Shown piece by piece: positions 95 to 4,181 of a stretch of 4,782 nt of DNA (position 1 is the stretch's first letter; each line of letters begins with the position of its first letter). Origin of the DNA: a virus (Duplodnaviria > Heunggongvirae > Uroviricota > Caudoviricetes). Made by a program: the position numbers and the translations under genes. Under the pieces are notes generated by a model, which had not been told where the DNA came from, did no database searches, and saw only the letters and a list, made by a program, of their open reading frames with translations. The stretch covers positions 1-4,782 of the IMG/VR virus record IMGVR_UViG_2681813320_000019, one strand, 5' to 3'.

Positions 95-1666
95 ATGGAC
101 ACCTCACTTGCTCATGAGAACGCCCGCCTGCGGGCACTGTTGCAGACGCAACAGGACACCATCCGCCAGATGGCTGAATACAACCGCCTGCTCTCACAGC
201 GGGTGGCGGCTTATGCTTCCGAAATCAACCGGCTGAAGGCGCTGGTTGCGAAACTGCAACGTATGCAGTTCGGTAAAAGCTCAGAAAAACTTCGTGCAAA
301 AACCGAACGGCAGATACAGGAAGCACAGGAGCGAATCAGCGCACTTCAGGAAGAAATGGCGGAAACGCTGGGTGAGCAATATGACCCGGTACTGCCATCC
401 GCCCTGCGCCAGTCTTCAGCCCGTAAACCGTTACCGGCCTCACTTCCCCGTGAAACCCGGGTTATCCGGCCGGAAGAGGAATGCTGTCCTGCCTGTGGTG
501 GTGAACTCAGTTCTCTGGGATGTGATGTGTCAGAGCAACTGGAGCTTATCAGCAGCGCCTTTAAGGTTATCGAAACACAACGTCCGAAACTGGCCTGTTG
601 CCGGTGCGACCATATCGTGCAGGCACCAGTACCTTCAAAACCCATTGCACGCAGTTATGCCGGAGCGGGGCTTCTGGCCCATGTTGTCACCGGGAAATAT
701 GCAGACCATCTGCCGTTATACCGCCAGTCAGAAATATACCGTCGTCAGGGAGTGGAGCTGAGCCGTGCCACACTGGGGCGCTGGACAGGTGCTGTTGCTG
801 AACTGCTGGAGCCGCTGTATGACGTCCTGCGCCAGTATGTGCTGATGCCCGGTAAAGTCCATGCTGATGATATCCCCGTCCCGGTCCAGGAGCCGGGCAG
901 CGGTAAAACCCGGACAGCCCGGCTGTGGGTCTACGTCCGTGATGACCGTAACGCCGGTTCACAGATGCCCCCGGCGGTCTGGTTCGCGTACAGTCCGGAC
1001 CGGAAAGGTATCCATCCACAAAATCACCTGGCCGGTTACAGCGGTGTGCTTCAGGCCGATGCTTACGGTGGTTACCGGGCGTTATACGAATCCGGCAGAA
1101 TAACGGAAGCCGCGTGTATGGCTCATGCCCGGAGAAAAATCCACGATGTGCATGCAAGAGCGCCCACCTACATCACCACGGAAGCCCTGCAGCGTATCGG
1201 TGAACTGTATGCCATCGAGGCAGAGGTCCGGGGCTGTTCAGCAGAACAGCGTCTGGCGGCAAGAAAAGCCAGAGCCGCGCCACTGATGCAGTCACTGTAT
1301 GACTGGATACAGCAACAGATGAAAACACTGTCGCGTCACTCAGATACGGCAAAAGCGTTCGCATACCTGCTGAAACAGTGGGATGCACTGAACGTGTACT
1401 GCAGTAATGGCTGGGTGGAAATCGACAACAACATCGCAGAGAACGCCTTACGGGGAGTGGCCGTAGGCCGGAAAAACTGGCTGTTCGCGGGTTCCGACAG
1501 CGGTGGTGAACATGCGGCGGTGTTGTACTCGCTGATCGGCACATGCCGTCTGAACAATGTGGAGCCAGAAAAGTGGCTGCGTTACGTCATTGAACATATC
1601 CAGGACTGGCCGGCAAACCGGGTACGCGATCTGTTGCCCTGGAAAGTTGATCTGAGCTCTCAGTAA
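95..1666 (+). CDS. tnpC: IS66-family transposase (TnpC/orf3 type), complete, 523 aa
   Basis: Uninterrupted 1572-nt ORF with ATG at 95 preceded by a purine-rich GTGAGGA at 87-93. The N-terminus is leucine-rich and coiled-coil-like ([47 protein letters not shown]). Paired CxxC motifs (ECCPACGG ... CCRCDH) form a zinc-finger-like segment, and an acidic-residue-rich catalytic core follows. Length and these motifs match IS66-family transposases (ISEc8-like) as I recall them. Confidence 0.93.
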
Positions 1667-1696
1667 ATATCAATACGGTTCTGACGAGTCGCTTAC
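1667..1696. repeat. Putative right terminal inverted repeat (IRR) of the IS66-family element
   Basis: Segment atatcaatacggttctgacgagtcgcttac ends in CGCTTAC, the reverse complement of the GTAAGCG terminus typical of IS66-family IRs. The matching IRL is outside the window, so the pairing cannot be confirmed. Confidence 0.35.
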
Positions 1697-1771
1697 GCAC
1701 ATCCTCCCTCTCTGAGTTAATGTTTTTGTCGTGACATAAGAATAATTCCTTACACTCAATCTTCGTAACGC

Positions 1772-1809
1772 TCCCGCAGTTCCTGTCCGTGAGCACTGCG
1801 GGATTTTTT
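1772..1809 (+). terminator. Intrinsic-terminator-like hairpin plus T-tract, plus-strand orientation
   Basis: A 9-bp GC-rich stem (tcccgcagt at 1772-1780 pairing with actgcggga at 1795-1803) encloses a 14-nt loop and is followed directly by TTTTTT at 1804-1809. On the minus strand the stem is preceded, not followed, by the A/T run, so it is unidirectional. Confidence 0.4.
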
Positions 1810-1814
1810 CGCTT

Positions 1815-2495
1815 TTATGCCTGCCGCCCGATAACCACCACCTTCCCGTCACCGCCTTCATCACGGGTACTGATGTCCTGGGATATACGGCGGGAGCCAA
1901 CCAGCATTTCCCCGTAAGGCACCGGCATCGGGTTCCCCTGGGCAATCATGTTATCCAGCGAGGAAAAGTACGTGTTCTGTCTGCCGTTATCCGTTGCGCG
2001 GTAATCCGGTGTTTTTGCCTTCGGGGCCAGCATCTGGGCCACACCGCCCAGAATCATGCTGGCTCCAAGTGAAAACAGCATCGTGGTGGCAGAAAAACCA
2101 CCGGCTGCCAGGGCTGAACCCCATAACGCCATTGATGCCCCGGCAGTGAAGAAAGAGCCCACGATGGCTGCCGCCCCCAGCACAATCTGCAGTCCACCCT
2201 TTCCGGCCCCGGCCAGTCGCGGCACAATGTGGATGACCGTTCCCTCACCCAGCTGTTCGTGAAGACGGGCGTACACCGCCTCCGGTGCCGTGTCCTCACC
2301 GCGAATACGTATCTGGTACCAGCCTTCGTTCATCTGACGGCGGAATCCCGGCATCTGCATCGACAGGGCACGAATGGCTTCCGCTGCCGTGTTCACATAC
2401 AGGCTGAGGCGGCGGCCAAATCGTTGTAAATCCCCGTGAAGGCAGATGCGTGCCAGTGGCGGTGACGCCAGACAGAATGCGTTCGTCGTTGCCAT
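1815..2495 (-). CDS. I: Lambda gpI-like tail tip assembly protein I, 226 aa
   Basis: ATG at 2495-2493, TAA at 1817-1815. Recognisable gpI segments include ARICLHGDLQRFGRR near the N-terminus, a central Gly/Ala-rich hydrophobic stretch, and the C-terminal NTYFSSLDNMIAQGN ... YGEM.VGSR ... VVVIGR. The start lies 103 nt inside the upstream K gene in another frame, as in lambda K/I. Confidence 0.9.
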   Translation of the reverse strand: MATTNAFCLASPPLARICLHGDLQRFGRRLSLYVNTAAEAIRALSMQMPGFRRQMNEGWYQIRIRGEDTAPEAVYARLHEQLGEGTVIHIVPRLAGAGKGGLQIVLGAAAIVGSFFTAGASMALWGSALAAGGFSATTMLFSLGASMILGGVAQMLAPKAKTPDYRATDNGRQNTYFSSLDNMIAQGNPMPVPYGEMLVGSRRISQDISTRDEGGDGKVVVIGRQA

Positions 2496-3136
2496 TTTTC
2501 GGAATACCTCTCCCGTTTACTCAGTTGTTCAGGCAGATGGTGAAGCAGCTCACCGTTGCCGCAGTATATGGCGGCATGATTGGCCACCGATGCGCCAAAG
2601 CAGCACAGCAGGATATCGCCCGCCTGTGCAGAGGACAGGGGCACCCGGTAAAAGCCGGTGACCGCCATATTGTCCAGGTACAGGTTCTGACCATTGCGCC
2701 ACCAGTCATCCTCACGCTCAAAATCCGGCATATCAATTCCCGCCAGATGGTATGCATCCCGGAACAGCGTGTAACAGTCCGTCACCCCGTGCTCAAAGAG
2801 CCGTCCTGTCAGATGTGGCACACAGCGGAATTTATGAATGTCCCCCCGGCAGACCAGCCACCAGGACAGTGCACTTTTTATCTGCAGCCGCCGGTCGGCC
2901 TCGCTCAGCCAGGGCAGACCACCGGGATGACTGTGGACCAGTGCCACAATCTCCCCCTGCATCTCTGCCCGCAGCCAGTCTTCCGGTGCAATACGAAAAT
3001 ACGCCTCCGGCTCTGCAGAGATATTCACACAAGGGATATACCGCTCCCCCTCCGGCGTTCTCACCACGAAGCCGCACGACTCCGCAGGCACACACCGCCG
3101 GGTGTGTGCCAGAATCACTGATTCTGTCTGTGTCAT
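2393..3136 (-). CDS. K: Lambda gpK-like tail tip assembly protein K (MPN/JAMM plus NlpC/P60 type), 247 aa
   Basis: ATG at 3136-3134, 5 nt after the L stop. Contains a JAMM-like motif (HSHPGGLPWLSEAD, i.e. HxH-x7-S-xx-D, with upstream Glu residues) and an NlpC/P60-like Cys/His set (GVTDCYTLF ... ANHAAIY ... LLHH). Position between L and I matches lambda gene order. Confidence 0.9.
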   Translation of the reverse strand: MTQTESVILAHTRRCVPAESCGFVVRTPEGERYIPCVNISAEPEAYFRIAPEDWLRAEMQGEIVALVHSHPGGLPWLSEADRRLQIKSALSWWLVCRGDIHKFRCVPHLTGRLFEHGVTDCYTLFRDAYHLAGIDMPDFEREDDWWRNGQNLYLDNMAVTGFYRVPLSSAQAGDILLCCFGASVANHAAIYCGNGELLHHLPEQLSKRERYSEKWQRRTHSVWRHRHWHASAFTGIYNDLAAASACM

Positions 3137-3141
3137 TGGAT

Positions 3142-3840
3142 TTACTGCGAAAGTTTGTTAATGGAAAGGAAACCGCCAAAATTAGCCACCATGCCGCGCA
3201 TCTCACACCCGCGCATGCACTTGCTGCATCTGTCCTTACGGATATCGGTGGTGGGTTTATCGAACTCATCCGCCACAGCCCCGCCCGTGTAACCACACTC
3301 ATCAGAGCGGTAGGTCCACATACAGGTGTTCGCCAGCATGATGCGACCGGGAAACAGCGCCCCGTCCGTCTCGGTCGGTGTGGCCAGCACAAACGAGGCC
3401 GTCATGGCCGTCAGCGATGACATCTGCTCCACCACCCACCGGTCAGTCAGCTCCTGCTCCGGGTCGGCCTCCGGATTGCCTGCCACAAAATTCACCGCAT
3501 CCAGAAAACGGGCATACACCCGGCGGCGGACCACCGTGGCCCCCACCAGGCTCTGCAGGTCCTCCGCCATTCCGGTGACAAGACCAAACAGATTGGACAC
3601 CGTCAGCGACGGTCTGGCACTGCTGCCCTTCCCGTTCATCTCAAAGCCGCTGCCGTCAATCGGGTACGCCTGATATTCACGCCCCTGCCAGGTGACCGGC
3701 TCCCCTTTTTCATTCAGTTCATTGCAGAAAAAATAGCGCTCACCGCCCTGCACCGTCAGGTCGATTTCCCAGAGTACCACACGCGGTGACTGCTCTGACT
3801 TAACCGACTCGTTCAGGCTTTCTTCGTGAATATCCTGCAT
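3142..3840 (-). CDS. L: Lambda gpL-like minor tail protein L, 232 aa
   Basis: Start chosen at the internal ATG (3840-3838) that gives MQDIHEESLNE..., the lambda-like N-terminus. It has an AGGTGGTGA Shine-Dalgarno about 6 nt upstream and overlaps the M stop by 1 nt (TGATG). The longer ORF from 3867 would overlap M by 28 nt and is less likely. Conserved gpL segments include VVLWEIDLT, GGERYFFCNE.NEKGEPVTWQGR.YQ, VRRRVYARFLDAVNF, FPGRIMLANTC.WTYR.DECGY, and the C-terminal Cys cluster ending NFGGFLSINKLSQ. Confidence 0.9.
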   Translation of the reverse strand: MQDIHEESLNESVKSEQSPRVVLWEIDLTVQGGERYFFCNELNEKGEPVTWQGREYQAYPIDGSGFEMNGKGSSARPSLTVSNLFGLVTGMAEDLQSLVGATVVRRRVYARFLDAVNFVAGNPEADPEQELTDRWVVEQMSSLTAMTASFVLATPTETDGALFPGRIMLANTCMWTYRSDECGYTGGAVADEFDKPTTDIRKDRCSKCMRGCEMRGMVANFGGFLSINKLSQ

Positions 3841-4181
3841 CAGTTCACCACCTGCTCTATCGTGCAACTGAAATCACTGTACCGGGCATTATCCGTGACA
3901 CTCCACTCACGGCACACAACCCTCACCGTCCGGTTATGTTTCGGCGGTCGCCACAAAAAGGCACGGTAACCACCATGCCACGATAAAAACTCTTCCAGCC
4001 AGCGCCGGGTTGACTCATCCGTCACCCGGAACACCGCCTGAAACGTCTTCAGTTGAGGATTCAGCCCTGTGGGGCGACGCTGTTCATAACCGTCACCAAA
4101 CCGCACCCTCGCCACCGACGGTTTCTCACTCACCTGCATCCCTTCACGCGGGACCAGATGCAGCGTTTTTATCTCAGCCAC
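3840..4181 (-). CDS. M: Lambda gpM-like minor tail protein M, 113 aa
   Basis: ORF with a GTG start at 4181-4179 and GGAGG about 8 nt upstream; the start overlaps the last 8 nt of H. Contains VRFGDGY, FLW.PP and the C-terminal EQVVN that I recall from lambda gpM. The exact start codon is less certain than the gene identity. Confidence 0.85.
   Translation of the reverse strand: MAEIKTLHLVPREGMQVSEKPSVARVRFGDGYEQRRPTGLNPQLKTFQAVFRVTDESTRRWLEEFLSWHGGYRAFLWRPPKHNRTVRVVCREWSVTDNARYSDFSCTIEQVVN

Follow-up and report, generated by a model that had tools for sequence, protein, structure and literature searches.

A terminator-like hairpin next to an IS66-family element probably ends a promoterless prophage allele of the PasB/EcOnc22-24 sRNA family

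The stretch of DNA analyzed here (4,782 nt, hereafter the window) contains a hairpin followed by a T-run, located between an IS66-family transposase gene and the tail genes of a prophage. We suggest, with a probability of about 0.85, that this hairpin is the terminator of an allele of the small RNA (sRNA) family including PasB and EcOnc22-24, which is borne by the prophage, lacks its promoter and has been left stranded beside the insertion sequence (IS). By analogy with the published homologues, the hairpin and its T6 tract would probably also constitute the Hfq-binding 3' module of the sRNA. A preliminary description of the window, made from the sequence alone, identified the hairpin but missed two points: a discrete plus-strand sRNA gene of this family ends with it, and the immediate ancestor of the prophage had a sodC gene between tail genes J and I. 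This finding leaves current views of terminators and of phage sRNAs as they were; a known sRNA family explains the hairpin.

The hairpin and the right end of the IS66-family element

The stem and the T-tract are exactly as reported in the preliminary description (Table 1), with 105 nt between the end of the tnpC stop codon and the start of the stem, and the hairpin sits, as was also proposed, in what remains of the I-J spacer. The claim that it is terminator-shaped only when read on the plus strand, the one antisense to the tail genes, is borne out as well: the G+C-rich stem is directly followed by a T-run on this strand alone, as expected of an intrinsic terminator, whereas in the minus-strand RNA an A6 tract precedes the stem and GAGCGUUACG follows it. 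A terminator scan of both strands yielded sites at the hairpin on the plus strand and none on the minus strand. Folding of the region, a check suggested in the preliminary description, gave a stable stem on both strands. The isolated 38-nt hairpin had a free energy of -15.9 kcal/mol (z = -4.06; one of 200 shuffles was equally stable) and, in a 51-nt context, values of -16.1 kcal/mol for the plus strand and -17.1 kcal/mol for the minus strand (z = -2.4 for the latter) were obtained. The loops of intrinsic terminators are typically 3-8 nt long, but the loop of this hairpin has 14 nt, which would shrink to 7 nt on formation of two weak inner pairs, and 10-16 nt separate the conserved half-stems in the other alleles.

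Table 1. Coordinates of the features of the window
Feature	Position	Strand	Remarks
tnpC transposase gene	95..1666	+	523-aa ORF; IS66 family (ISCro1/IS679-like)
IS right end	1667..1696	+	Ends in ...GTCGCTTAC, reverse complement of the GTAAGCG terminus
sodC-cassette remnant	1697..1708	+	12 nt, GCACATCCTCCC; same as the sequence 3' of sodC in EDL933, Sakai Sp10 and Stx2_EH2201
sRNA gene body (putative)	1709..1809	+	Predicted +1 equivalent, G1714; equivalent of the annotated PasB 5' end, ~1727; 3' end, T-tract
Predicted weak 5' stem-loop	1714-1757	+	MFE fold of 1714-1809; a U-run pairs with an A-rich run; low confidence
ATCTTC	1759-1764	+	Invariant in 15/15 alleles; in the single-stranded stretch 1758-1771, 5' of the terminator
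Hairpin stem	1772-1780 (TCCCGCAGT) / 1795-1803 (ACTGCGGGA)	+	9 bp, 6 G-C; 14-nt loop, 1781-1794
T6 tract	1804-1809	+	U-tail of intrinsic-terminator type; expected Hfq-binding 3' end, by analogy
Tail assembly protein I	1815..2495 (PGAP-style start: 1815..2396)	-	Stop codon 1815-1817, 5 nt from the T-tract
K	2393..3136	-	Annotation of homologous locus
L	3142..3840	-	Annotation of homologous locus
M	3840..4181	-	Annotation of homologous locus
Tape-measure gene H, 3' part	4174..>4782	-	Annotation of homologous locus

A custom scan of the window for terminator patterns (stem of at least 8 bp, loop of 3-16 nt and T-rich tail, with dinucleotide shuffles as the null) recovered the queried hairpin and one other site. 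However, the shuffles averaged 0.56 sites of this kind per window, with at least one in 36% of them, so the shape of the hairpin and its T-run is weak evidence by itself, and the case rests on conservation and comparison. Inside M (3960-3979, minus strand), GGCATGGTGGTTACCGTGCC and the TTTTTGTG that follows it form another site with the shape of a terminator, on the sense strand of the tail operon.

The preliminary description considered that the IS might end to the right of the hairpin, which would then be the tnpC terminator or a structure of the IS end, and it called for a comparison with other IS66-family copies. The queried hairpin is indeed the first terminator-like site 3' of tnpC. Nevertheless, in a blastn search with positions 1640-1960 against 5,426 complete E. 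coli genomes, matches to the IS only stopped at 1696/1697 and matches to the prophage only began at 1697, which corresponds to uninterrupted prophages holding this sequence without any IS. The matching copies carry the RefSeq label 'IS66-like element ISCro1/IS679 family transposase', and three ISCro1 copies in unrelated contexts had a common sequence through ...GTCGCTTAC (CGCTTAC) and diverged immediately beyond it. A few ISCro1 matches did run some bases past 1696, but the next bases in these cases are similar targets (GCACATCC, GGACATCC and AAACATGC). The boundary of the IS is therefore 1696 and, since the hairpin starts 76 nt further on, outside the terminal inverted repeats of the element, the hairpin is prophage DNA. 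An IS origin of the hairpin, with a boundary displaced to its right, is thus refuted for all practical purposes, and annotation should assign the hairpin to the prophage and keep the IS boundary at 1696.

The 8 bp abutting the right end of independent ISCro1/IS679 copies (L027-L029) resemble each other and those of the window: GCACATCC (window 1697-1704), GGACATCC, AAACATGC and GCCCAACT. This similarity suggests a target-site preference of ISCro1/IS679, which would account for the BLAST matches running past the end of the IS.

The same junction was found in only one complete E. coli genome, that of the O111:H2 strain 12A, which is not identical to the window. The IS of strain 12A (L002 3340-3360 and 6050-6066) is not flanked by an 8-bp target duplication (ACTGTATC on the left vs GCACATCC on the right), and its left neighbour is a tail-fibre remnant. 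Because of these differing flanks and of the remnant on the left, the comparison points to an IS-associated deletion that took out sodC and J, and apparently also lom and most of the tail-fibre gene. The junctions of 12A and the window are identical, but three of the last 77 bases of the IS (window 1620-1696) differ between them, suggesting either independent insertions at one site or conversion between IS copies. H126 was also considered as a same-junction genome and was rejected, as it has a different IS insertion, inside K. In E. coli WP7-S17-ESBL-04 (L033), a separate ISCro1 insertion breaks the K gene of a related prophage; given this separate insertion, prophage tail regions of this kind would be recurrent targets of IS66-family elements.

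The sRNA gene of the J-I spacer

The comparison with the I-J spacers of lambdoid phages, also proposed in the preliminary description, located the hairpin in uninterrupted phages and prophages, placed in the same way, 5 nt from the I stop codon and with no IS. The J-I spacer ends in the queried hairpin in the sodC-less prophages L003 and L004 and in phages JLK-2012, PhiR5_1, Stx2_14040, 1720a-02 and PhiR12_1, and has a length of ~240 nt in the intact phages and ~340 nt in L003 and L004. An alignment of ten such spacers revealed a conserved plus-strand promoter, a body of ~100 nt, a CCCGCAG/CTGCGGG stem and a run of 6-8 T. In the intact alleles, the promoter reads TTCACA-16-TATAAT (with a score of 11/12 in L004). 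Because the matches to diverged phages (71-79% identity) all cover exactly positions 1709-1809 of the window, this homology block is, as judged from sequence comparison, the transcription unit.

The intact J-I spacers contain another conserved hairpin, 5' of the sRNA promoter (CAGGCACC...GGTGCCTG; JLK-2012, L007 1412-1433; A2 columns ~50-75), which has a free energy of -17.4 kcal/mol, is followed by TTGTTTTT on the tail-operon strand and is also present in L006, L008-L010, L012 and L013. It looks like an I-J terminator on the late-mRNA strand; neither the sodC-linked lineage nor the window has it.

PasB, from prophage PP6 of EPEC E2348/69, is an 83-nt sRNA (NC_011601, minus strand, 1466343 to 1466261; Pearl Mizrahi et al. 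2021, PMC8550237, Table S6) that gives a northern band of the predicted size and has Hfq-dependent stability (PMC8550237). The probe used for this northern blot, AATCCCGCAGTGATCGCGGAGCT (PMC8550237, Table S6), matches the hairpin of the L003 and E2348/69 (L006) spacers without mismatch once reverse-complemented. PasB occupies the I-J interval, antisense to the tail genes, and the T-run of E2348/69 is likewise 5 nt from the I stop codon. The 3' end of PasB deduced from RNA-seq coverage (PMC8550237), position 1466261 of NC_011601, coincides with the last T of the homologous T7 tract, and the PasB fragment in RIL-seq chimeras is the 3'-terminal 46 nt (PMC8550237).

EcOnc22, EcOnc23 and EcOnc24 were reported as plus-strand Hfq-CRAC peaks in Sp15, Sp14 and Sp11, respectively, of EHEC O157:H7 Sakai (Tree et al. 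2014, PMC4104026, Table S2), and EcOnc22 yields a northern band of ~85 nt and is destabilised in an hfq deletion (PMC4104026). The published coordinates refer to an older version of the Sakai sequence and were shifted by +128 to +146, a correction calibrated at a single locus, AgvB1 (1941783-1941835 in the paper vs an Rfam match at 1941920-1941981 in NC_002695.2). The three peaks fall within the J-I spacers of Sp15, Sp14 and Sp11 in NC_002695.2 (L013 1631-1729, L014 and L015), and with this shift the EcOnc22 peak covers the sRNA body (L013 ~1643-1712). From these positions, which depend on the coordinate correction, we infer that PasB and EcOnc22-24 appear to be alleles of one sRNA family, a link not drawn in the publications on either (PMC8550237; PMC4104026). 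The window allele (1709-1809) is 68% identical to PasB (61% in the body), 66% identical to EcOnc22 and 98-99% identical to the allele of JLK-2012, a type that has a promoter and is also found in many Stx1a/Stx2c phages. The experimental data on the family come from alleles only 66-68% identical to that of the window, and the size (~83-98 nt), 3' end, Hfq dependence and pairing with mRNAs expected for an RNA from the window are taken, by analogy, from the literature on these homologues.

We built a covariance model (R1) from seven alleles, none of the window type: PasB, the near-identical L003, EcOnc22, Stx2_14040, 1720a-02, PhiR12_1 and L024. This model matched positions 1705-1813 of the window over its full length (69.2 bits, E about 3e-10), as against at most 29.5 bits for five unrelated terminators sharing the CCCGCAG/CTGCGGG stem, and it did not match phage lambda. 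Among 15 alleles, 56-99% identical overall, the seven core pairs of the stem are invariant (15/15) and the closing U-A pair is kept in 13/15, whereas the loop varies in length and sequence and the flanks vary too. All eight consensus pairs lack compensatory changes across the 15 alleles, and the comparison of alleles therefore neither proves nor disproves the stem structure. No Rfam family for the sRNA element emerged when the window and nine related loci were searched at E thresholds of up to 1 or 0.1.

The conserved ATCTTC is a candidate seed or Hfq contact. A seed region has been proposed for a conserved single-stranded motif 5' of the terminator (Zhu, Shabalina and Storz 2026, bioRxiv 10.64898/2026.05.13.724894). 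The U-run/A-run hairpin predicted further 5' also folds in PasB, but in the other two alleles folded the 5' hairpins are placed differently, and it was not recovered in the consensus fold of the alleles. The window thus has the position of the family (J-I spacer, antisense to the tail operon, with the 3' end abutting the I stop codon, the J side having been lost to the IS), homology over the whole transcribed unit, the CCCGCAG/CTGCGGG stem with a U-run of at least six residues (T6 in the window) and the conserved motif, unpaired in the fold, 5' of the terminator. The sigma-70 promoter that family members have ~100 nt 5' of the T-run is missing, which marks the window copy as truncated rather than as unrelated to the PasB/EcOnc22-24 family.

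About a quarter of the complete E. coli genomes (1,376 of the 5,426) had a blastn match to window 1709-1812; the best match per record was at least 99% identical in 509 cases and 90-95% identical in 661. No sRNA gene was annotated in any of the 30 matches listed. An sRNA gene of ~100 bp, without annotation in any of the records examined, would lie in the J-I spacer of about a quarter of these genomes. In a pattern scan of one genome per species, true relatives were found only in E. albertii and in contaminant contigs, and five matches corresponded to unrelated terminators that share the stem by chance. Three short contigs filed as Parendozoicomonas haliclonae (L020), Streptomyces flavalbus (L024) and a Clostridiales MAG (L025) contain a J-I spacer of the E. 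coli type; L020 agrees with the Sakai Sp15 allele along most of the contig, L025 is of the sodC-linked type, and assembly contamination is the most likely source of all three. In the published PasB survey, blastn was run with a word size of 28 and a query coverage of >75%, settings that would be expected to miss the window allele. The family, with a conserved promoter, terminator and ATCTTC core and a variable body and loop, would thus be wider than a survey with this word size captures.

The sodC lineage, promoter loss and alternative readings

O157:H7 EDL933, Sakai Sp10 and the Stx2a phage Stx2_EH2201 match the window from position 1697 onward and have a plus-strand sodC between J and I; this sodC-linked left boundary, with matches starting at 1697, was found in 537 of the 5,426 E. 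coli genomes. The 12 nt next to the IS in the window (L001 5001-5012 in EDL933) are unlike the TATAAT region of the promoter-bearing alleles, homology with which starts at 1709, 5 nt before the predicted +1, and the sodC-linked lineage has CCTCCC in place of TATAAT. The polypyrimidine stretch that replaces TATAAT in all sodC-linked copies (window 1703-1713, CCTCCCTCTCT) also holds an anti-Shine-Dalgarno-like CCUCC. No sigma-70-like promoter was detected in the window or in the EDL933 sodC locus by a crude scan, which did not find the promoter of sodC itself either.

In EDL933, sodC is followed, 8 nt past its stop codon, by a proximal hairpin of its own (AGGTAAGGGGcgggCCCCTTACCT then TTATTCC, -17.9 kcal/mol; L001 4935-4958), and the queried hairpin comes second and starts 148 nt beyond that stop codon. 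The T-run of the proximal hairpin is interrupted (TTTATTCC), and partial read-through toward the sRNA body is conceivable. In Sakai Sp10, the spacer between sodC and I lies at 1963484-1963673 of NC_002695.2, on the minus strand. No Hfq peak is listed at the identical, sodC-linked copy of Sakai Sp10 in Table S2 of Tree et al. 2014 (PMC4104026), but this is weak evidence, because peaks within 100 nt of same-strand coding regions were discarded in that study (PMC4104026), and such a filter would drop a peak so close to sodC.

These comparisons are consistent with a two-step history. Intact lambdoid phages would have an sRNA gene of ~100 bp, antisense to the tail operon and expressed from its own TTCACA-16-TATAAT promoter. 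A sodC cassette would have replaced the left part of the spacer and the promoter, up to ~5 nt before the predicted start, giving the state seen in EDL933 and Sakai Sp10; an IS66-family element would then have inserted 12 nt 5' of the homology block, with the loss of sodC and J. The only plausible input to the orphaned terminator would be read-through from tnpC, which the hairpin would stop, sparing I, K and L from antisense RNA, and the sRNA body would then form the 3' end of the tnpC transcript. The preliminary description had presented the hairpin as a possible barrier to read-through from the IS. This role is retained in part, as transcription running on from tnpC would come upon no terminator-like site before the hairpin, which would limit antisense RNA into I/K/L. 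However, such insulation would be only a by-product, and the hairpin did not originate at the IS/prophage junction, the same hairpin being present in uninterrupted phages and prophages.

As regards its present state, the sRNA of the window copy is probably silent, or the hairpin merely stops tnpC read-through; since this copy lacks the family promoter, it may be a dead relic. It is also possible, although unlikely, that the promoterless body has been re-wired as a 3'-UTR-derived Hfq-binding sRNA, produced by read-through from sodC in the sodC lineage or from tnpC in the window. If this were so, the transposase transcript would end in a PasB-like regulator, which it could release by processing, and the expression of the transposase or of the superoxide dismutase would be coupled to the targets of the sRNA. 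The copies linked to sodC and to the IS amount to natural promoter deletions and could be used for tests of expression by read-through.

Other explanations have to be weighed against a terminator of the PasB/EcOnc22-24 type. The hairpin could have served the ancestral sodC as a distal, backup terminator, or have formed the end of its 3'-UTR, and be related to that gene rather than to an sRNA. Its location on the sodC strand, 148 nt past the stop codon, in EDL933, Sakai Sp10, Stx2_EH2201 and an E. albertii contig would fit this explanation, as would the interrupted proximal T-run, which makes some read-through plausible. We nevertheless consider it decidedly unlikely, given that sodC has a strong hairpin of its own, that many sodC-less phages carry the queried hairpin and the upstream body behind a dedicated promoter, and that homology between sodC-linked and sodC-less sequences begins at the sRNA start and not at the hairpin. 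Termination of sodC transcripts would be a secondary role at most, in the sodC lineage, and the window has no sodC. A primary identity as the sodC terminator was rejected on two grounds: the proximal hairpin of sodC is a distinct one, and the element persists in phages that lack sodC.

An activity on the minus strand, as a stability, processing or pause element of the tail mRNA, with an incidental T-run, would agree with the equally good folding of the minus-strand RNA, with the position of the hairpin 5 nt past the I stop codon and with the presence of a hairpin in the I-J spacer of lambda. However, the minus strand lacks a U-run, intact phages have a conserved plus-strand promoter ~100 nt upstream, experiments on homologues have revealed plus-strand RNAs with the expected size and 3' end, and the hairpin of lambda, which model R1 does not match, has an unrelated sequence; this explanation is accordingly very improbable. 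As for a chance hairpin without function, sites of this shape are common enough in shuffled windows (36%), but a stem and T-run invariant over 15 alleles with variable flanks and loops, blastn matches to 1709-1812, with the hairpin included, in 1,376 of the 5,426 genomes and homologues with published experimental support leave next to no room for it.

Comparison with known systems

PasB and the window allele have in common the J-I spacer location, antisense to the tail genes and with 5 nt between the T-run and the stop codon of I, the CCCGCAG/CTGCGGG stem, the U-run and ATCTTC, and they can be aligned over the whole transcribed unit. They differ in the loop (14 nt in the window and 11 nt in PasB) and in the TTCACA-16-TATAAT promoter, which the window lacks. 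The stem, T-run and ATCTTC of the window allele are also shared with EcOnc22-24. AgvB and AsxR are likewise short, Hfq-associated prophage sRNAs with a conserved 3' terminator region and a variable 5' part but, unlike the sRNA gene described here, their genes lie in the late-gene moron site, 3' of PR', and not between I and J. Considered as candidates for being sRNAs of EHEC prophages, they were rejected: in addition to the different location, models RF02702/RF02703 found AgvB in Sakai but matched neither the window (E up to 1) nor any J-I spacer.

The sRNA gene also resembles a moron, a unit of promoter, gene and terminator, in being an autonomous unit placed amid late genes and ended by an intrinsic terminator. 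The sodC moron occupies the same J-I gap, in the orientation of the sRNA unit, but the unit of the hairpin would encode an sRNA rather than a protein. Phage lambda has the same K-I-J order and the same 103-nt overlap between K and I, whereas its I-J spacer has only 60 nt and no sRNA gene. The hairpin in this lambda spacer (AAACCGCCtgcgGGCGGTTTTGTCATTT; L032 ~762-785) is terminator-shaped on the tail-operon strand, and its sequence is unrelated to that of the PasB-type element.
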